A DNA stretch of 64,000 nucleotides from Candidatus Atabeyarchaeum deiterrae (GTDB taxonomy: Archaea > Asgardarchaeota > Atabeyarchaeia > Atabeyarchaeales > Atabeyarchaeaceae), in the NCBI GenBank assembly GCA_037310415.1, contig CP147780.1:1728001-1792000 (forward strand). Reading direction: 5' to 3'. Below are positions 6,053-55,943 of the stretch, piece by piece. The notes beneath the pieces were generated by a model. That model searched no databases and had not been told where the DNA came from. It saw only the letters and a list, made by a program, of their open reading frames with translations. The position numbers and the translations under genes are program-made. Numbering within the stretch: the stretch's first letter is position 1; each line of letters opens with the position of its first letter.

Positions 6053-8139
6053 ATGTTAGCTGGGATTCAGGTGACCACCTCCAAGTAAAAGCCTGTCCCT
6101 GCGACAGAGCGCCAAAAGCATGCTCGGATGACTCAGAAGCTGAGCAAAAAGGAAAACTAAAGATCGCACTAGCCGGAAACGCGAATGTTGGGAAATCCGT
6201 TGTATTCAATCAGCTAACAGGACTGCATCAGCACATTGGCAATTGGCCTGGCAAAACGGTTGAGCGCGCCGAAGGAACGCTCCACTTTAAAGGGTACACG
6301 ATTGATGTTATTGACCTGCCTGGGATTTATTCCCTTTCAACTTATTCAATCGAGGAGTTGGTTTCAAGGGAGTACATCGTCACCGAGAGACCAGACATAG
6401 TGATTAACGTGGTTGATGCCACTCTCTTGGAAAGGAACTTGTTTTTCACACTGCAGCTGATGGAACTTGAGATTCCCCTAATTATCGCGTTGAACCAGAT
6501 CGACTTAGCGAAGAGAAAGGGAATAAAGATCGACCTAAAGAAACTCGAACAGGTTCTTGGGGTTTCTCTGGTTCCCACGGTTGCAGTGAAGGGAATAGGC
6601 ATCTACGAATTGTTAGACAAGGCGATAGAAATCATTGAAAACAAGAGAAAACAATGCCAGCAATGCATGACCCGGGAAGGAGTGTCAGAAGATGCTGCGC
6701 AAGAAAAGAACTGTTGTTACTATGACCAGCTCAGATACGGAAATGAGATAGAAGCAAGAATCAACAAACTAAGTGACTTGCTCAAAGCACACGAATTCAA
6801 GTACCCAGCCAGATACCTAGCAATCAAACTCCTCGAAGGCGATGAGGAGATCTCAGGTGAAGTTGAAAGAGTAGCTCCCAGCGCTGTCTCGAAGGCGAGA
6901 GAGCTGTCTGTGGAGCTTGAGAAGATCCACGGTCACTCTTGCTCTACTCTGATAACGTCTGAAAGGTACGAAGTGGCTGGATGCATAGCCAGGGATGTTC
7001 AAGAGGTCAAGTCCCCGTTGAAACCGCTAATGGAAGAGCGGCTCCACGATATTACAACTCACAGGATACTCGGGTATCCCATAATGATCACCATAGTTCT
7101 CTCCATATTTGCCCTTGTTTTCACTTTTGGAGGGTGGCTCTCGAATCTGCTGACGAACGTCTTCTACGTTTGGCAACCACTCTTCATAAGCATATTTGGA
7201 AGTGGGGTCACATCAGCTTTAGCTTGGAGCATCATAGAAGGAATTATAGCTGGCATTACTATAGCATTGCCCTACATAATTCCGTTCTACATAATTCTGC
7301 AGATCCTAGAGAACTCTGGTTATCTCAGCAGAGTCGCATACCTGATGGATAACCTCATGCACAAAATAGGGTTGCATGGGAAAGCATTTATTCCAATGAT
7401 GCTCGGATACGGCTGCAATGTGCCAGCATGTCTGGGCTGCAGAATAATGGAAACAGACCGGGAGCGGCTTCTCGCAGCCTTCGTAACAACTTTGGTGCCA
7501 TGCGCCGCGAGAACAGTGGTAATTCTTGGAGTAGTGGGAGCATTCTTGGGATTACAGTGGGCTCTAGCTATCTATGCTCTCGACATAATAGTGATTTTTC
7601 TTCTGGGAAGGATCGCGTTTAGGGTTCTGCCAGGTGAACCTACGGCACTTATAATGGAGATGTCCGATTACAAGCTGCCAAACATGAAAACGGTCTTTAG
7701 TGAGACTTGGGTTAGAATTCTCGATTTTATCAAGATGGCCTTCCCCATTATAATCGTGGGAAGTTTCGTTCTCAAACTACTGGATGTTATTGGGCTTATG
7801 GGACCAATAGCAGCAGCTCTCAGCCCCGTTATGGTTGGATGGCTGGGATTGCCGGCAGTCGTGGGAATCGTGTTGATCTTTGGTGTTCTCAGAAAGGAAT
7901 TAACATTGATCATGCTCGCTGCGCTGCTGGGCACAACAAACTTTGCACTCGTGCTAACCCCTATTCAAATGATTGTTTTCGCTATAGTCGTTATGTTTTA
8001 TATTCCATGTGTCGCAACAATCGGCGCGTTGGTCAAGGAATTTGGGTGGAAGAAAGCATTATTTATAACGGTTTTTGAGATTCTCTTTGCCTTCGCGCTT
8101 GGGGGCATAGTACTGAGAGTCTTGATGTTGCTTGTGTAG
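6049..8139 (+). CDS. feoB: Ferrous iron transport protein B
   Basis: [30 protein letters not shown]-motifs; GYGCNVPA and YIPCVAT gate motifs; GAGGTGA before ATG 6049. Confidence 0.96.
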
Positions 8140-8337: not shown

Positions 8338-8474
8338 GTCCGACTCAGCCAATACGTCTAAGTGTGCTGCGCTAGATATCACCCTCTCGAGTTTCCACGC
8401 TTTAGTAAACTAGTTGCTGATTGCTGCCGAGGAGCTCGGAAAAAAAAGAGGTTGATGAAGAGAGTTACATACTC

Positions 8475-9827
8475 TCATCTTTTTTTCGTTGTTCCTTTCG
8501 CGCCCTTTGAAAAGTCGAAGTCGACCTTAACCTTTTGCAGCACCAGTACACCTAGAACTAGGAAAATCGCGAGAATGGGACCGAAGTATCTGTACCCCAT
8601 GTAACCTGGAACGTCTACTAAGATGCCTGATATCATAAGACCTACTGCTTGGAAGATGTTCAATGGGATCGAGTTGAACCCCATGTAAATACCTGCACGT
8701 GCTTCTCCTGTTCTTAGCTCATCCTCGTGTGCGATGTCTGCCATTATTATGTAGGGGATAAGCATGTACCCGGCCAAAGTAAACGCGACTAGACCGACAT
8801 AGATACCACCCTGCAAAAATAGCGATAATGGGATACCAATTCCAATTATCATGGAAAACGGCAGGATTATGGCGAGGAAGATCATTGCAAATGTGAGACT
8901 TCGTTTCTTGCTGAATCTTCTGTAGAGAGCCATCCAGATGAGAAAACTGAAGATGGCTACGAAGATGAATATAACGCCGAAGATAATGTAGTCCATCTGG
9001 CTCGTGAACTGCAAGATGTATTTCATGAAATCTAGAACGAGGCTCTGGATGGAGATGATTGATACTGACAGTGTTCCCTGAGTCAGGATCCATTTCATGT
9101 AGTTCCTGTTCCTAGTTATGGTGCCAAGCTCTCGCATGATGGACGGCGTCTTTATGTGTTTGTCGGCAGATTCCCGCAGTTTGATTACAGCTGGGACATA
9201 GAATAGGATTTGTATCAAGGAAGCAATGATCATTATCTCAATAATCATGCCCCAGTTCTGCGTGGCGATCAGCGTTGGGAAGAACATGAGTGAAATCGCG
9301 ATGCCTATTGCTGTTCCGATCATATTTGTCGTGTTCAAGATAGTCGATAACTTCGTTCTCTCTTGTGGCTCGGTCAACTCAGGCATCCAAGCCTGATAGG
9401 GCGTGCTGATCCATCCGTACCAGAAGTTGACCATGCAGACCGCGAAAGTCATGTATAAGAATAGTGGTATCTGGTATGAATCGGCATGATAGTCTGGGAC
9501 CATGGTCATCGTAGGCAAGAAGTACATGGGAGCGAATAGTAGGATCATAGAGAGCGCTAGAAATGGTGCTCCAGTGATTGCGAAGGGTTTTCTTCTTCCC
9601 CATCGCTTGCCTTTAATTCTGTCACTTAGAGCGCCAGCTGCAAACTGCGCCACCATGATAACCAATTTGCTGAGAGCCAGTGCGATTCCAGCGAACAAGC
9701 CTAGAAGTCCAAGTGGTGCTTCCGTGTAGAAATAGAGAGGTGCGAATTCGACCAATCGTAGACCGATTTGAGCGCCAAGTGGTCCAATACCGTACCAAAG
9801 CTTCTCACTTGCTTTCATGAAGAGCAT
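8475..9827 (-). CDS. MFS transporter, glycoside-pentoside-hexuronide (MelB-like) type
   Basis: GALSDR...WGRRKPF, PYQAWMPEL, ADIAHEDELRTGEARAGIY; about 12 TM. Confidence 0.92.
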   Translation of the reverse strand: MLFMKASEKLWYGIGPLGAQIGLRLVEFAPLYFYTEAPLGLLGLFAGIALALSKLVIMVAQFAAGALSDRIKGKRWGRRKPFAITGAPFLALSMILLFAPMYFLPTMTMVPDYHADSYQIPLFLYMTFAVCMVNFWYGWISTPYQAWMPELTEPQERTKLSTILNTTNMIGTAIGIAISLMFFPTLIATQNWGMIIEIMIIASLIQILFYVPAVIKLRESADKHIKTPSIMRELGTITRNRNYMKWILTQGTLSVSIISIQSLVLDFMKYILQFTSQMDYIIFGVIFIFVAIFSFLIWMALYRRFSKKRSLTFAMIFLAIILPFSMIIGIGIPLSLFLQGGIYVGLVAFTLAGYMLIPYIIMADIAHEDELRTGEARAGIYMGFNSIPLNIFQAVGLMISGILVDVPGYMGYRYFGPILAIFLVLGVLVLQKVKVDFDFSKGAKGTTKKR

Positions 9828-10046
9828 TTATCTGTTGAGTTCATATTTAAATAAGTTCGCTTGGAGACAAGGTGAACCAAGCCCTACCCATGGTCGAGCA
9901 ACTTCTAAGCTCAGTCGAGTATTGTTCTTCCATAGGCCTTAACATCTATTCGTCAGAATACCCGGATAAACTGCGACTATCGCATCAAACCAGCAGCAAG
10001 AATAAGGTTCTACCAACATCACTTATTCAGACGGTACGAATCAAAG

Positions 10047-38347: not shown

Positions 38348-39250
38348 CTATGCTTGCGCTCTGAGCTTCTGTTTTGTGAGTTCATTATCATCTATGCGCT
38401 GGCTGCACACTGGGCAGCGATCCTTCACGTGCAACCATTCAAGCAGGTGAACTTTATGTGCGATATTCCCGCAGTGAGGGCATCTCAGAATCGGATCTCC
38501 CAGTTTGAAATTCAAGTTGCAAACAATGCATTTCCTGTCAGTCACACTTATCTTCTCTTCTTTAGCAGGAACTGCCGCGCGTGCACGCTTCCCTGCCTTT
38601 CTCTCCCTGATTACTATGACGGGTTGTTCAACTCGCGCAGGCTGGCGGCCTGCGGTAGAGCGCTGTGCTCCCTTTGGAAACTGTTCTCTTGGCTGACTTA
38701 ACTCGAGTTGCTCTTCCTGCAAGCTTGCTCCACAATTCATGCAGAAGAGAGCGCCAGGGAATTGCACCTCTGTGCCGCAGTAGGGACAAGCCGCGAGTCT
38801 TTCCGGACGCATACGGGAAGCGATATTTCGAGCTGTATCAGAAGCGGCTCGTGTCTCACTGACAGAGACTTCAGGAATATTCTCGTTCTCTATCATTGAG
38901 GCAAGCTGAGGGTTGAGTCTGACCGCTTCATCATAGCACTTGGCAGCGTCCTCATGCCTGCCAAGCTTGCTCAATGCAATGCCTTTCTGGAACCATGCTT
39001 TCTCATACCTCGGATCTATTCCGAGCGCTTGGTCAAACACTTTCAACGCTGCTTCAAACCTGTTAAGACTGATTAGAGAGACACCTTTGTTGTAGTAGGC
39101 AACGGTGTACTGGGGGTCCTCTTCTATCGCCCTGTTGTAGCTTTCTACTGCTTCATTATAGGCGCCGATGTTGTCAAAGTTGATGCCTTCATAGAACCAC
39201 TTCACAGCATTAGATCTAGGCACCGAGTCGGTCCTCCTCACCAGCATCAT
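38348..39250 (-). CDS. TPR-repeat / Zn-ribbon / RING-variant protein (putative E3 ligase)
   Basis: Three TPRs (AYYNKG, AWFQKG), CPYCG...FCMNCG, C-terminal CIVC-x12-CPHC-x4-HKVH-LLEW..-CPVC. Confidence 0.85.
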   Translation of the reverse strand: MMLVRRTDSVPRSNAVKWFYEGINFDNIGAYNEAVESYNRAIEEDPQYTVAYYNKGVSLISLNRFEAALKVFDQALGIDPRYEKAWFQKGIALSKLGRHEDAAKCYDEAVRLNPQLASMIENENIPEVSVSETRAASDTARNIASRMRPERLAACPYCGTEVQFPGALFCMNCGASLQEEQLELSQPREQFPKGAQRSTAGRQPARVEQPVIVIRERKAGKRARAAVPAKEEKISVTDRKCIVCNLNFKLGDPILRCPHCGNIAHKVHLLEWLHVKDRCPVCSQRIDDNELTKQKLRAQA

Positions 39251-48323: not shown

Positions 48324-48866
48324 ATGGTTAGAGAGATGACTGAAACAAACCTTCGAAGCGCATATGGGGGCGAGAGCCAAGCGCACATGAGATACAACAC
48401 CTTTGCCGAAAGAGCGAAAGACAAGTTTCCCAATGTGTCAAGGCTGTTCACGGCAGTAGCCGTTGCCGAGAAGATTCACGCTAACAACCATTACAGAAAC
48501 ATAAAGAGCAAAGGCGCAGCAACAGTCGTGTCTGGAGCACTCTTTGGAGCTACCAATACATCTGAGGATCTGCAAGCGGGAATAGACGGCGAGACTTTTG
48601 AGATCAACGAAATGTATCCAGCCTATAGAGCAGTGGCTCAATTCCAAGGAGAGAAAGGCGCCGACCTTACCTTCAGATATTCTGAAGAAGCTGAGAAGAT
48701 GCATCTCACCTTATATCAGAAGGCAAAACAAGCTGTCGACAAAGGCAAAGACGTCGTTCTTGGAAAGATACAAGTGTGCCTGGTGTGTGGGTACACAGCT
48801 GAAGGCGAGGCCCCTGACAAGTGCCCCGTGTGTGGAGCGACGAAAGACAAGTTCAAAGCTTTCTAG
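48324..48866 (+). CDS. rbr: Rubrerythrin
   Basis: GESQA, AEKIH, GETFE..EMY, AEKMH, CLVCG...CPVCG. Confidence 0.96.
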   Translation: MVREMTETNLRSAYGGESQAHMRYNTFAERAKDKFPNVSRLFTAVAVAEKIHANNHYRNIKSKGAATVVSGALFGATNTSEDLQAGIDGETFEINEMYPAYRAVAQFQGEKGADLTFRYSEEAEKMHLTLYQKAKQAVDKGKDVVLGKIQVCLVCGYTAEGEAPDKCPVCGATKDKFKAF

Positions 48867-50131: not shown

Positions 50132-50902
50132 CTACGTCTCTTCTCTGCCATTTTTCCTGCCTCTTGACTGCTTCGTTGCTCTCGACAGTTGTTCGCTGAG
50201 CTCCTTCTCATCTAGGTGCTTGCTGCAGGCTGGACATTGGTTGTGCACATGCAGATACTCGAGTAAGTGGTCTCTGTGAGCTGGACTTCCACAATGCGAA
50301 CACCACGCCACGGCATCACTCAGTCTCAAGTCCTGATTGCATACCATGCAGATGCCTGTGCTCTCGGCAACTCGAGGCAGTCGCGCCTCCTGTGAAGTTT
50401 GAACGTTTGTAGCGCGAGGGGAGACGTCTGCGGCTGCAGTCGCTAGGTTTGCCTCACAACGTGGGCAGAACTTGGCACCATCTATGATTATAGTTGAACC
50501 ACAGTTGCCGCATACCGGCCTTAGCCGAATGACTTCCAGCTTGATCCGATAAATGCCAATGGAGACGAGAAGCATAGCGACAATAAATCCAAATATCATG
50601 GCTAGCGCGGGAATCAGCGGGAGTTCGCTACCTTTCATTACCCATATCTTGTCGGGAGGAACTCCAGCAAATTCAGCAACAACATAGATCACGGGAATGT
50701 CGACAAGTATACTGAGGATTCCGAGTATGATGACTATTCTATTTCGTCTATGGACCTTAAGTGTGGCACCGCAACCAGAGCACAGAAACTCCCTCCCTCG
50801 CAACCGTGAGAAGAATATCCTATTATCTGTTTGACAATTCGGGTACCTAACCCCAAGCGGTCTCGTAGTGGCTGGCATGCCTTCCTTTCTCCCAAATGTC
50901 AT
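50132..50902 (-). CDS. Zn-ribbon / 2TM / Zn-ribbon / RING-variant membrane protein, copy 3
   Basis: YPNC..CSGC, two TMs, CGNC..FCPRC, CMVC-x12-CSHC-x4-HRDH-x10-CPAC. Confidence 0.85.
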   Translation of the reverse strand: MTFGRKEGMPATTRPLGVRYPNCQTDNRIFFSRLRGREFLCSGCGATLKVHRRNRIVIILGILSILVDIPVIYVVAEFAGVPPDKIWVMKGSELPLIPALAMIFGFIVAMLLVSIGIYRIKLEVIRLRPVCGNCGSTIIIDGAKFCPRCEANLATAAADVSPRATNVQTSQEARLPRVAESTGICMVCNQDLRLSDAVAWCSHCGSPAHRDHLLEYLHVHNQCPACSKHLDEKELSEQLSRATKQSRGRKNGREET

Positions 50903-50998
50903 TCCAGCAGATTACTCAACCGATTCTATCTCCGTTAATTCTATTCGAGGCTATTGCCCGTCGGATACTTGAACAGGCGAGCCTTGCGGTTAAGCGCT

Positions 50999-51718
50999 TC
51001 ATAGTGTGCTTACGCGCTTCCATTTCTTTTTAGTTGTTTGTCGCTTATTCGAGTGTAACGGTGGGTCCTTGATTTCGGGCTCCTCAAGGTGTTTGCCGCA
51101 TGCAGGACAGCTCTTTCTCAGGTGAACCCATTCAATCAAGTGGACCTTGTGAAAGGTGTTTCCGCAGTGTGGACAGCATGCGAGAACCTCGCTCTCATTC
51201 ATTTCCAAGTCGCAGACAAGGCACGTTCCAACTGGTTTGGGTTTCGGAAGATGATGTGTCGGTCTCTGGGTCTCAATCTGCTGCTCGGTAATTGTGATTC
51301 TTTCCCAGGCTGGGTGTTCCATGCTCGCTCCACAGTTTGGACAGAACTCAGCGTCCTCCAGGACCATGACTGCGCTACAGTATTTGCAGGTGGGTCGCAG
51401 CCGAACGACCTCTATCTTCTTGACACGGATAATAATAGATACTACAATGAGGAAATAGGGGAGGATTCCCAGGCCGATCAGAAACATGAGTTCCCCACTG
51501 TCAGCTTTTCCTCCATAAGTGCCCAAGTACATGATGACAAGCAACACGACAACAATTGTGATGATTGGGAATCCAGCGATTCCGAGACCCATTGATGCTC
51601 TGAAACGAGCAGTTGTCTTGAGTACAGCCGGACAGTTGGGGCAATGAACCTCCCCAGATGCTTGACGTTTCTCGTTAGTCCAGAAATTGACTTCGTTCCT
51701 GCAGTTTGGGCACTTCAT
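50999..51718 (-). CDS. Zn-ribbon / 2TM / Zn-ribbon / RING-variant membrane protein, copy 2
   Basis: CPNC..CPNC, two TMs, CKYC..FCPNC, CLVC-x12-CPHC-x4-HKVH-LIEW..-CPAC. Confidence 0.88.
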   Translation of the reverse strand: MKCPNCRNEVNFWTNEKRQASGEVHCPNCPAVLKTTARFRASMGLGIAGFPIITIVVVLLVIMYLGTYGGKADSGELMFLIGLGILPYFLIVVSIIIRVKKIEVVRLRPTCKYCSAVMVLEDAEFCPNCGASMEHPAWERITITEQQIETQRPTHHLPKPKPVGTCLVCDLEMNESEVLACCPHCGNTFHKVHLIEWVHLRKSCPACGKHLEEPEIKDPPLHSNKRQTTKKKWKRVSTL

Positions 51719-51829
51719 TCTCTGCTTCCCCTCTACCCTGCATCTCTTCTGATGCTCAAACTAGGATTCATCTGCTCAAGTATCAGTCTCATACATTGAT
51801 TCATGATGTAGCTGACTTACAGCCTTCAT

Positions 51830-52549
51830 CTATTTTATTCTTCTTTGCATGCGCTTTTCAGATAACTGTTCCGTTAACTCCTTCTCGTCCAACTCCTTGC
51901 CACAAGATGGACACTCCTCGTGCACGTGCAAATACTCGAGTAAATGAGTTTTGTGGGCAGAACTCCCACAGTGCGGACACCATGCAGCAATTTCATTCGC
52001 CATCAGTTCCTCCTTACATACAGCGCAGATCCCGATGGTTTTGGTTCTAGGTGCCTTACTTTGTACTGCCACAGTTCCAGCTTGTCGAGAGCTAGCACGC
52101 TTTTTCCCAGATATATCGTCCAATTCTGCTCCACACTTCGGGCAGAAGTGTGCGCTCTCCATCTTGATTGTTGAACCACATCTAGCACAGATCGATGCAA
52201 GTCGAACCACCTGCAACTTCGCAGTGAACTGGGCAAATACTCCTAGAGAAATGCCGAGGATTACTCCACTCCAAAAGACTACGCCTGGGATCGGGTTTCC
52301 TTGCAACAGAAATATGGATGCAGTAGAATCAGTAAGATGTCCTCCAAGTGCGAGACCGACCAGAGCCGAAGCAACGGCTCCCAACACAATGGTGAGAATT
52401 GAGAACAGGAATAGTAGTCCCTTACTTCTTGGAAATCTGAGCACAGCAGCACACTTCGGACACCTTAGTTCTTGTCCCAGATCTTCGCGCCCTTTGAGCG
52501 TGATCCTTTCATCGCAATTTGGGCATTTCAGCGCCAATTCATATCTCAT
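51830..52549 (-). CDS. Zn-ribbon / 2TM / Zn-ribbon / RING-variant membrane protein, copy 1
   Basis: CPNC..CPKC, two TMs, CARC..FCPKC, CAVC-x12-CPHC-x4-HKTH-x10-CPSC. Confidence 0.88.
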   Translation of the reverse strand: MRYELALKCPNCDERITLKGREDLGQELRCPKCAAVLRFPRSKGLLFLFSILTIVLGAVASALVGLALGGHLTDSTASIFLLQGNPIPGVVFWSGVILGISLGVFAQFTAKLQVVRLASICARCGSTIKMESAHFCPKCGAELDDISGKKRASSRQAGTVAVQSKAPRTKTIGICAVCKEELMANEIAAWCPHCGSSAHKTHLLEYLHVHEECPSCGKELDEKELTEQLSEKRMQRRIK

Positions 52550-53146
52550 TTCACTCTCTTCCACGAGCGATTGTGATCCTCACTTTGGAGTTTCGGCACC
52601 TTGCTTCTTCTGATTTTCATGCCTTGGATTCCCGGTACCTTCTGATCCCCCATCATTTTTCCTTCCATTCCCTTTTTCCACTCATAACATGAGAAGCCAT
52701 CATGACAAGGATCGTCGGGCAGAAGAACCAGAATTATGTAGAGCCTTGTGCAATATTGTCAACTTTCTGCATCTTTTCTCTTTCTACTTGCAACGGCCCC
52801 ATCACCCTGACTCAAAGGTCCCACTTCCTTCGATTCGCTCTCAACTGTAAGAACAGTGGATCAGTGACCTCTCACCCATAGTCCAATATATAAGGTAATC
52901 GCTTACAGTCAGTGAAACCAACTTTCTTGAGTGGAGTTGCATTAAACGGGACTTCCATCGGTTGAGGCCTGATCGAGAATCTCAGCAAATTCTACCTGCC
53001 AATTATTCTCAAATTGCTCGGATTAGTTTGTAATGGATAGGCAGCATCGGATGCCATTTGTTGAGAATTACGCAACGCCACCCGCAGAAAGCCCAACTGT
53101 TCGCACATCTTCTTAAGTATCTTGTCAAGAATCTCCCTAGTATAAG

Positions 53147-54910: not shown

Positions 54911-55456
54911 TCATGTGCCTACTCTAGTTGGCAACTCCGAAAACATCTCTCTCTTGGCCTTGCAAATAGGGCAAATGTACGGAGGCTCATCTCTATAGCA
55001 AACGTAGCCACATTGCTCGCAGTACCACAACTTCATCTTTCCGGCAGCTTGTTGCTTGGTTGTTGCAGGCGTTTTCTTCTCAGTCCTCTTCGTTGCTGAA
55101 GGTTCTTTGGACGTTTCAAAAGCTCTAGCTTGTTTTTCTGGGGGTCTGCGTTCCGGGATCGGATTGAAGGCGGCTCTTCCACTGAATACATCCTCGTTGA
55201 CGTAGAGTCCGCAGTAGCAGGTTCCATACTCCTTGACATCTGGATCTCGGTACCAGCACGGGCAGATTATGTCTCTGTCAAAGTCAAGTTTTCCAGCTGC
55301 GAGCCTGCAAGGGCACGAAGGGTAGCCGTACCGCTCTTCATTCTTCTTGAGTCCTTCTAAAAGGTCGCTCACAAAAGCCTTGTCTGGATTCAGGTAGCAG
55401 CCATTGGTTTTTGCATCGCTTTCTGCTCTCTGTCGAACCTTCTCTAAGGTTATCAT
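54911..55456 (-). CDS. Ferredoxin:thioredoxin reductase catalytic subunit fused to a rubredoxin-like domain
   Basis: CPCR, CPC, CYCGLY, then CEQCG...CPIC. Confidence 0.93.
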   Translation of the reverse strand: MITLEKVRQRAESDAKTNGCYLNPDKAFVSDLLEGLKKNEERYGYPSCPCRLAAGKLDFDRDIICPCWYRDPDVKEYGTCYCGLYVNEDVFSGRAAFNPIPERRPPEKQARAFETSKEPSATKRTEKKTPATTKQQAAGKMKLWYCEQCGYVCYRDEPPYICPICKAKREMFSELPTRVGT

Positions 55457-55737
55457 AGTCCCAAAGCCTCCTTGAATCTGTCTTCCCTGTAACCATTTAT
55501 CGCTTTCTTGTCGTCGATGATTATGGTTGGGAACACGATATTTCCTCCGTGCTTAGCTATGTCTTTTCTAATCTCCTCTTGGTCTGAGGGGTTGTATAAG
55601 TCGATGTCAGCATACTCGAATTCGATACCGTTTTCTTTCATAAACTGCTTGGTTTTCTTACACCAAACACATGTGCTCAGCGCGTAAATCAAGACTTTGT
55701 GTGCCTTGTTTTTTCCGGGGACTTTGTTGGTCTTCAT
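55453..55737 (-). CDS. Glutaredoxin/NrdH-like protein
   Basis: YALSTCVWCKKT, FPTI; overlaps FTR start. Confidence 0.92.
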   Translation of the reverse strand: MKTNKVPGKNKAHKVLIYALSTCVWCKKTKQFMKENGIEFEYADIDLYNPSDQEEIRKDIAKHGGNIVFPTIIIDDKKAINGYREDRFKEALGL

Positions 55738-55943
55738 CGTTTTCTCCTCTGTGCCCTTTAGTATCAAAGTTCATTATAAAAGCATTTGTGGAAATAGCTG
55801 GAAGAGGCACTATTTGCCTGCCCTCGAAAAAGTTGGGTGTCTAGCTTTGGTCTCGAACAGAAAGTTAAAAGAACAACTTCCTTGCACTAATCGTTTTGAA
55901 CTGATTCAGTACGCTCACTTGTGTTGAATTGGAGTCGACAGCG

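Follow-up and report, generated by a model that had tools for sequence, protein, structure and literature searches.

Do three adjacent genes of an Asgard archaeon encode ubiquitin ligases that are anchored in the membrane? This question is raised by a stretch of 64,000 nucleotides from Candidatus Atabeyarchaeum deiterrae (the window, at its full length), which covers positions 1,728,001-1,792,000 of a single 2.76-Mb contig. Three neighbouring and co-oriented open reading frames (ORFs) lie on the minus strand at window positions 50132-52564 (1.778-1.781 Mb of the contig) and encode the paralogues A, B and C. We consider it fairly probable that these proteins are membrane-anchored RING-type ligases (E3) of the Asgard ubiquitin system, and we present them as candidates. 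[quoted passage not shown]

Architecture of the three paralogues

The genes and their domains are located as follows (window coordinates; lengths and loops in amino acids, aa; TM, transmembrane helix).

50132..50902, minus: paralogue A (P0001), 256 aa from Met1
50753..50851, minus: N-terminal ribbon of A, residues 18-50, Y-x2-C...C-x2-C
50549..50740, minus: TM1 and TM2 of A with a 16-aa loop between them, residues 55-118
50444..50548, minus: juxtamembrane KLEVIRL strand and second Zn ribbon of A, residues 119-153
50207..50356, minus: RING domain of A, residues 183-232
50999..51718, minus: paralogue B (P0002), 239 aa
51611..51718, minus: N-terminal ribbon of B, residues 1-36
51425..51598, minus: TM1 and TM2 of B with a 9-aa loop between them, residues 41-98
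51320..51424, minus: KIEVVRL strand and second ribbon of B, residues 99-133
51080..51229, minus: RING domain of B, residues 164-213; identity to the RING of the ubiquitin operon, 47%
51830..52564, minus: paralogue C (P0003), 244 aa from the GTG at 52564
52430..52534, minus: N-terminal ribbon of C, residues 11-45
52226..52423, minus: TM1 and TM2 of C with an 18-aa loop between them (short helix at 81-86), residues 48-113
52121..52225, minus: KLQVVRL strand and second ribbon of C, residues 114-148
51884..52033, minus: RING domain of C, residues 178-227, modelled with a predicted local distance difference test score (pLDDT) of 92-96

The true start of A is likely Met9 at 50878, which is preceded by a Shine-Dalgarno-like GGAAGG run, and the public gene call for A (P0015) begins at the same residue. 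The start of C is probably the ATG at 52549, giving a protein of 239 aa; its record in the Atlas begins there too.

The proteins share the same order of parts: a Zn ribbon (C-x2-C-x17/19-C-x2-C), two TM helices, a strand, a second ribbon (C-x2-C...F-C-P-x-C), a disordered linker and the C-terminal finger. The two helices are hydrophobic (Kyte-Doolittle peaks of 2.0-2.9; helices 47-72 and 91-113 in the AlphaFold2 model) and are separated by a loop of 9-18 aa. The strand follows TM2 immediately and conforms to K-L/I-E/Q-V-V/I-R-L, and the linker was modelled with a pLDDT of 41-46, below 50. Pairwise identity among A, B and C is 30-41%, with 48 invariant columns that include the Cys and His residues reported in the preliminary description of the locus. 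All parts of the layout given there were seen, but one ligand was not: A reads R-Y-P-N-C, where Tyr replaces the first ribbon Cys, which leaves three Cys in its N-terminal ribbon. We searched a profile of the three proteins (A1) against a library of 1.84 billion representatives and found 28 at E <= 1e-30 and 212 at E <= 1e-10, which indicates that A, B and C are real genes rather than chance ORFs.

The metal-binding parts were said to be conserved while the remainder diverges, and this pattern is recovered between orthologues: identity is 54-77% in the zinc modules and 11-52% in the TM helices, loop and linker. Poor conservation of these last parts is usual for membrane anchors and disordered linkers.

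The C-terminal finger is a RING domain

The ligands of the finger show the fixed spacing C-x2-C-x12-C-x2-C-x4-H-x2-H-x10-C-x2-C (C4H2C2). In an alignment of 22 full-length rows, seven of the eight ligand columns are invariant and the sixth ligand (the second His, His207) is His in 20 rows and Asp or Glu in two. Of 160 proteins collected, mostly family members, 156 fit a regular expression with this spacing. We then compared a profile of 71 non-identical family RING segments (A3) to solved structures. The best matches were RNF24 (3.3e-10), EL5 (2e-8) and RNF126 (3e-8), followed by Arkadia, RNF165, ZNRF1, listerin, HRD1 and AMFR. The finger aligns with RNF24, EL5 and RNF126 ligand for ligand except at the canonical His of ligand 4, which is Asn or Ser here and is replaced by a Cys three residues upstream (C-P-x-C). 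The same oddity at ligand 4 has been described for srfp (small RING finger protein), an E3 of Caldiarchaeum subterraneum (PMC5654768).

The predicted structure agrees with the profile. The AlphaFold2 model of the domain (pLDDT 87.7) superposed on EL5, RNF126, HRD1 and RNF165 with a root-mean-square deviation (rmsd) of 1.2-1.6 Å over 48 residues (Foldseek, VIA). The best Foldseek matches reached TM-scores of 0.6-0.75 to RING domains, nearly all of the 50 rows listed by VIA are RING or U-box domains (Z of 6.0-7.9), and the matches listed by both programs are almost all RING, U-box or RING-like zinc modules. The profile matches and the RING fold of the model settle the choice between a RING and a PHD finger in favour of a RING, as had been proposed: by homology and predicted fold, the C-terminal domain is a RING and neither a PHD nor a plain ribbon. 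At full length, the model returned domain-level matches only in Foldseek (rmsd of about 20 Å or more). The feature search of the array proteins in the ESM Atlas gave scores of 0.80 or less, and its structure rows gave TM-scores of 0.32 or less, with "putative RING-type" clusters of Promethearchaeota among them.

Among Pfam families, the commonest match of the family RINGs is Prok-RING_1 (PF14446), found in 70 of 71 segments at E <= 0.01 (best 3.6e-13); its alignment covers the first half of the model only (positions ~4-33 of 54). This Pfam family is reportedly associated with work by Burroughs, Iyer and Aravind in 2011. The RING of the ubiquitin operon scores 32.4 bits against it. Another Pfam family, Zf_2nd_IFT121, matches 21 of the 71 segments. 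For the ribbon and RING taken together, the best multi-domain fold matches were the C-terminal zinc modules of GATOR2/SEA and IFT-A (E of 4e-4, but rmsd of ~22 Å), which gives a weak hint, from models, of a link with protocoatomer-type RING tails.

Membrane topology

Lys and Arg residues number 5-7 in the ribbon segments on either side of the two TM helices, compared with 0-2 in the loop. Receptor-like paralogues of the same genome, with a signal peptide, a beta-sandwich or propeller ectodomain, one TM helix and a ribbon-RING tail, carry this tail after an Arg-rich stop-transfer segment. The positive-inside bias and the receptor-like paralogues together suggest that ribbons and RING are cytoplasmic. 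A, B and C are thus predicted to be N-in/C-in, in agreement with the cytosolic RING of the preliminary description.

The ubiquitin system and the E2-contact surface

The genome contains one cluster of ubiquitin and ESCRT genes at 341-350 kb: Vps4, Vps25, Vps22/36, Vps28, UEV-Vps23, JAB, a gene of unknown family, RING, ubiquitin, E2 and the ubiquitin-activating enzyme (E1). The scores at 345-350 kb are 107.6 bits for UQ_con, 43.5 for ubiquitin, 238 for ThiF and 68 for JAB. The search for ubiquitin machinery that had been called for thus recovered ubiquitin, E1, one E2 and a JAB protease in a single cluster, a complete set adjoining the ESCRT-I/II and Vps4 genes. No ubiquitin, E1 or E2 gene lies within the window (1728001-1792000), as had been noted, and all matches in the genome to the profiles of these proteins fall outside it. 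UQ_con matched the E2 and the UEV domain only. Against 12 RING ORFs we counted a single E2 (leaving aside the UEV domain), a single E1 in the operon and a single ubiquitin, which indicates a layout of one E2 and many E3s. The closest named relative of the E2 is that of Candidatus Njordarchaeum guaymaensis (80% identity).

The arrangement of this cluster is familiar from Asgard archaea. Its RING is an 86-aa ORF that is 47% identical, ungapped over 53-57 residues, to the RINGs of B and C (E of 1e-19 and 2e-21; 1.1e-19 against the A1 profile). An operon RING from a cluster of this kind in Helarchaeia has been reported to ubiquitinate UEV-Vps23 in vitro, together with its own E1 and E2 (bioRxiv 10.1101/2023.07.25.550441). 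The ubiquitin encoded in the cluster is a pro-form ending in GGR. The gene of unknown family, between JAB and RING, encodes 286 aa with a weak match to SKA2 (L044), and a scan of ten ORFs in the cluster (L044, 340001-353000) showed no ESCRT-III gene. In L044 coordinates, the RING occupies 7655-7912, E2 8421-8891 and E1 8899-9948.

The surface through which RINGs contact E2 is strongly kept. An aliphatic residue (Val, Ile or Leu) precedes Cys2 in 71 of 71 family RINGs (Val in A, B and C), an aromatic residue (Trp, Tyr or Phe) stands four residues past ligand 6 in 70 of 71 (Tyr, Trp and Tyr in A, B and C, respectively), and Pro follows Cys7 in all 71, A, B and C included. The equivalent I30 and W58 of srfp are required for its activity (PMC5654768). 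A modelled complex of the genome's own E2 (9-row alignment) with the RING of C (71-row alignment) gave a median of 0.30 relative to a mark of 0.32, from a run without controls.

Arrays in related genomes

We further compared the locus to related contigs. Arrays of two to four genes with the same architecture were found in L045, L046, L047 and L049, and array genes in these relatives often overlap by 4 nt, stop on start, which is a sign of translational coupling. L045 and L046 are syntenic with the window (glutaredoxin, ferredoxin:thioredoxin reductase, endonuclease III, array); L046 also has the enoyl-CoA hydratase and rubrerythrin genes, and L045 ends within the array. The flanking proteins of these two contigs are 67-86% identical to those of the window, whereas the best array pairs are 34-47% identical and copy number differs. 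This indicates that the locus evolves much faster than its surroundings. Together with the 12 RING genes of the genome, it bears out the earlier view of an expanded, fast-evolving family. Fast divergence of the array by itself is no demonstration of positive selection, and at the 46-55% protein identity of the nearest orthologues synonymous sites are saturated.

The phylogenetic tree pairs the paralogues with distinct orthologues: A with P0008 (46%), B with P0016 (55%), and C with P0017 and gene 1 of L045 (47%), with support of 98-99. A and C belong to one clade, separate from that of B, and the arrays of L046 and L049 likewise combine both clades. Orthologues for each paralogue and mixed clades point to old, maintained and co-expressed paralogues. 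The two-clade arrays, translationally coupled in relatives, suggest co-expression and possibly hetero-oligomers. The array of L049 (773-3988) consists of four translationally coupled genes; its members include a protein of 339 aa with a duplicated TM-hairpin module and one of 310 aa with two middle ribbons, and the last gene (157 aa) kept the ribbon and TM part and has no RING.

Proposed function and alternative explanations

The cytoplasmic tail of A, B and C carries the same RING as the E3 of the ubiquitin operon, and they are therefore probably membrane-bound ubiquitin ligases. E2 binding, catalysis, substrates and downstream fate are what we infer from this. These small two-pass proteins would hold their C-terminal RING at the cytoplasmic face of the membrane, where it would recruit the genome's single ubiquitin-charged E2 and allow ubiquitin to be passed to proteins kept near the membrane. 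The substrates would most likely be membrane proteins, or membrane-proximal partners of the two conserved Zn ribbons, and the tagged proteins might be sorted by ESCRT via the ubiquitin-binding UEV-Vps23 or be degraded. Substrate choice through the variable TM/loop region, as first proposed, is purely conjectural, and the N-terminal and middle ribbons would be at least equally good candidates for binding partners.

Several observations weigh against a ligase. The linchpin Arg or Lys that activates the ubiquitin-charged E2 in many RINGs, but is not universal among active RINGs, is absent after the last Cys, where A, B and C have Gly, Ser and Gly, respectively; across the family, this position is Gly in 44 of 71 RINGs and Lys or Arg in only 7. 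All three have a Lys at +2 after the last Cys. In srfp the linchpin is R69 and is needed (PMC5654768). Judging from sequence, the absent linchpin is the main reservation. Because a Cys upstream replaces the His of ligand 4, zinc site 2 is also non-canonical. In addition, A, B and C score 21.6, 17.5 and 25.2 bits against Prok-RING_1, all below its gathering threshold of 29.1, and 20.7 bits or less against zf-RING_2 (gathering threshold 27.3). The array is 1.43 Mb from the ubiquitin cluster and is not adjacent to ubiquitin, E2 or E1. Finally, some RING folds are purely structural scaffolds, and the modules of GATOR2 and IFT-A are among the fold matches. On the other side, the finger is a RING, it is predicted to lie inside the cell, and the genome encodes E2 and ubiquitin; the opposites of these three findings had been named in advance as grounds for abandoning a ligase.

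The missing linchpin and the structural modules of GATOR2/SEA and IFT-A among the fold matches, along with Zf_2nd_IFT121 in 21 of 71 segments, would fit a RING that is a zinc-stabilised interaction or scaffold module. A, B and C would then have no ligase activity and serve as adaptors or assembly factors in the membrane, perhaps as hetero-oligomers, and the two-clade arrays with stop/start overlaps in relatives fit obligate complexes. We regard this as unlikely: the three E2-contact positions are strongly kept across 71 diverse members, which is hard to explain without E2 binding, and the ubiquitin operon has the same domain type, which is reported to be active in two archaeal systems (PMC5654768; bioRxiv 10.1101/2023.07.25.550441). 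A more elaborate scenario, to which we give still less credence, is that of hetero-oligomeric membrane E3s, with one member per clade, that tag membrane proteins for UEV-Vps23, the fast turnover of copies reflecting adaptation as the targets change, for example surface proteins or membrane proteins of viruses.

Alternatively, the four Cys-rich zinc sites could be thiol switches of redox- or metal-sensing membrane proteins tied to nearby oxidative-stress genes. On one flank of the array are genes for rubrerythrin and enoyl-CoA hydratase, the other flank encodes endonuclease III, glutaredoxin and ferredoxin:thioredoxin reductase (redox genes at window 48324-48866, on the rubrerythrin side, and 54911-55767), and the two syntenic contigs add genes for peroxiredoxin, thioredoxin, thioredoxin reductase or DJ-1. 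However, these contigs are close relatives, as seen from their flanks, so the neighbourhood is inherited and gives no independent evidence; we therefore set aside a functional tie to the redox genes. The distant arrays L047, L048 and L049 have no redox neighbours, and the genes on both flanks are divergent in orientation and hence not in one operon with the array. Thiol switches would also leave the conserved E2-contact surface unexplained, and we find this explanation very unlikely. Even harder to credit are nucleic-acid-binding or metallochaperone Zn-ribbon proteins, a reading that follows the JGI names of homologues (DUF1610 "RNA-binding Zn-ribbon", HypA/HybF, phage Mu Com) and sub-threshold matches to HypA, Zn_ribbon and TFIIB ribbons. 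These matches rest on the C-x2-C spacing and mostly fall below curated cut-offs; only the generic DZR and Zn_ribbon pass, and HypA marginally for C. NCBIfam likewise gave sub-threshold ribbon matches only, such as TIGR04104 (cxxc_20_cxxc) with 27.6 bits relative to 45 at the N-terminus of B. Such labels leave out of account the TM helices and also the RING, which by profile matches E3s far more strongly.

Comparison to known RING ligases

Homology places the domain among the archaeal srfp-type RINGs. It shares with srfp the RING-H2-like variant with an extra upstream Cys in site 2 and the conserved E2 surface of Ile/Val, Trp and Pro. In contrast, srfp is soluble, about 60-100 aa long and operon-encoded, whereas the array proteins carry in addition two ribbons (one of them N-terminal), a membrane hairpin and a linker, are encoded in tandem 1.43 Mb from the operon, and do without the linchpin Arg that srfp needs.

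The best solved RING matches are found among the eukaryotic TM RING-H2 ligases (RNF24/RNF122, plant ATL/EL5, the PA-TM-RING proteins RNF13/ZNRF3, Hrd1 and gp78/AMFR), which resemble the array proteins in combining a membrane anchor with a cytoplasmic C-terminal RING-H2. They differ at ligand 4, which is Cys here and His there, and none of the solved eukaryotic matches showed Zn ribbons on the flanks of a membrane hairpin. Outside the RING, searches of the whole proteins against Pfam, NCBIfam, the PDB and the Atlas named no similar eukaryotic family.

The preliminary description called the proteins MARCH/MUL1-like. This holds for topology, since MARCH and MUL1/MAPL, too, are two-TM proteins whose termini and RING are cytoplasmic, but it does not hold for homology: the array proteins have a RING-H2 variant placed C-terminally and a short loop. 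MARCH proteins have a C4HC3 RING-CH N-terminal to the TM pair, whereas the array RING is C-terminal to both helices and has His at ligand 6. MUL1 has a large folded domain between its helices, followed by a C3HC4 RING, whereas the array loop is only 9-18 aa and the ligands are C4H2C2. MARCH and MUL1 are therefore analogues of the array proteins and not homologues, and would offer a functional parallel for the tagging of membrane proteins.

The ubiquitination of membrane proteins by membrane RING ligases, as in endoplasmic-reticulum-associated degradation, MARCH activity, receptor down-regulation and multivesicular-body sorting, is seen as a trait of eukaryotes. In Asgard archaea, the parts known so far are ubiquitin, E1, E2, ESCRT and a RING E3 that is small and soluble; to our knowledge, the link that would bring ubiquitin to the membrane has been missing. 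A membrane-anchored family of operon-type RINGs would provide concrete candidates for this link. The proteins are small (about 240 aa) and include a soluble cytoplasmic fragment, which makes for a compact, testable system with cognate E1 and E2. If hetero-oligomeric E3s did act with UEV-Vps23, they would represent a prokaryotic forerunner of ubiquitin-dependent sorting or quality control of membrane proteins.

Conceptually this is a modest advance, since neither the RING type nor its activity is new. The signature proteins listed for Asgard archaea already include RING fingers (PMC11291895), and RING E3s of two archaeal systems have been characterised (PMC5654768; bioRxiv 10.1101/2023.07.25.550441), so the suggestion that nothing of this kind had been described in prokaryotes does not stand as it was worded. 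It may still hold for the membrane-anchored form: we found no description of membrane-anchored Asgard RING proteins in the searchable literature, whose coverage is partial and does not prove novelty. The array proteins thus appear to be an architectural variant of the known Asgard RING E3, with a known RING type and an apparently new membrane form.

Distribution of the wider family

In the paralogues encoded elsewhere in the genome, the shared ribbon-RING module is joined to N-terminal parts that differ widely. Besides the receptor-like proteins, these parts are an OB-like domain with TM helices, TPR repeats or ARM/HEAT repeats. One such gene lies within the window, 11 kb from the array, and encodes a candidate E3 with a repeat scaffold of eukaryotic style:

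38348..39250, minus: soluble protein of 300 aa with TPR (~3 repeats), Zn ribbon and RING, the same ribbon-RING module

Among the 156 RING-bearing proteins collected, 104 have at least one TM helix before the RING (by a crude count of hydrophobicity) and about 25 show the full order of ribbon, TM, ribbon and RING. Two or three RINGs per chain were observed in P0019, P0030, P0098, P0114, P0147 and P0152, with three RING domains within the 452 aa of P0019. We sampled 151 genomes of the phylum and found the RING type in 110 of them, with 1-33 copies; it is absent from all 26 genomes of one family. Within this sample, the full-length architecture at E <= 1e-25 is confined to the family of Ca. Atabeyarchaeum deiterrae, which comprises three genomes.

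A sister genome, G012 (2.81 Mb, one contig), has 29 RING-type matches compared with 12 in the source genome, and many of its RING genes are packed into 2.016-2.030 Mb and 2.154-2.178 Mb. This suggests RING gene islands and large differences in copy number within one family. G012 presents a single full-length-like match, which is non-syntenic and has an in-frame TGA.

Neighbouring genes and source of the DNA

The source DNA was present in wetland and freshwater-sediment metagenomes of three studies, and no RNA run was among the sequencing runs listed as containing it. A, B and C matched no defence family in PADLOC. Near the array, the catalytic subunit of ferredoxin:thioredoxin reductase is fused to a rubredoxin-like domain. 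On the plus strand, a 244-aa ORF at window 53147-53881 matches the N-terminal 40% of defence proteins of the GmrSD_N/DUF262 type (PADLOC HEC-05, 8.9e-48, profile positions 22-249 of 600) and is likely a truncated defence gene. This ORF is inserted between the array and the endonuclease III gene, at the place where relatives have DJ-1 or peroxiredoxin/thioredoxin genes.

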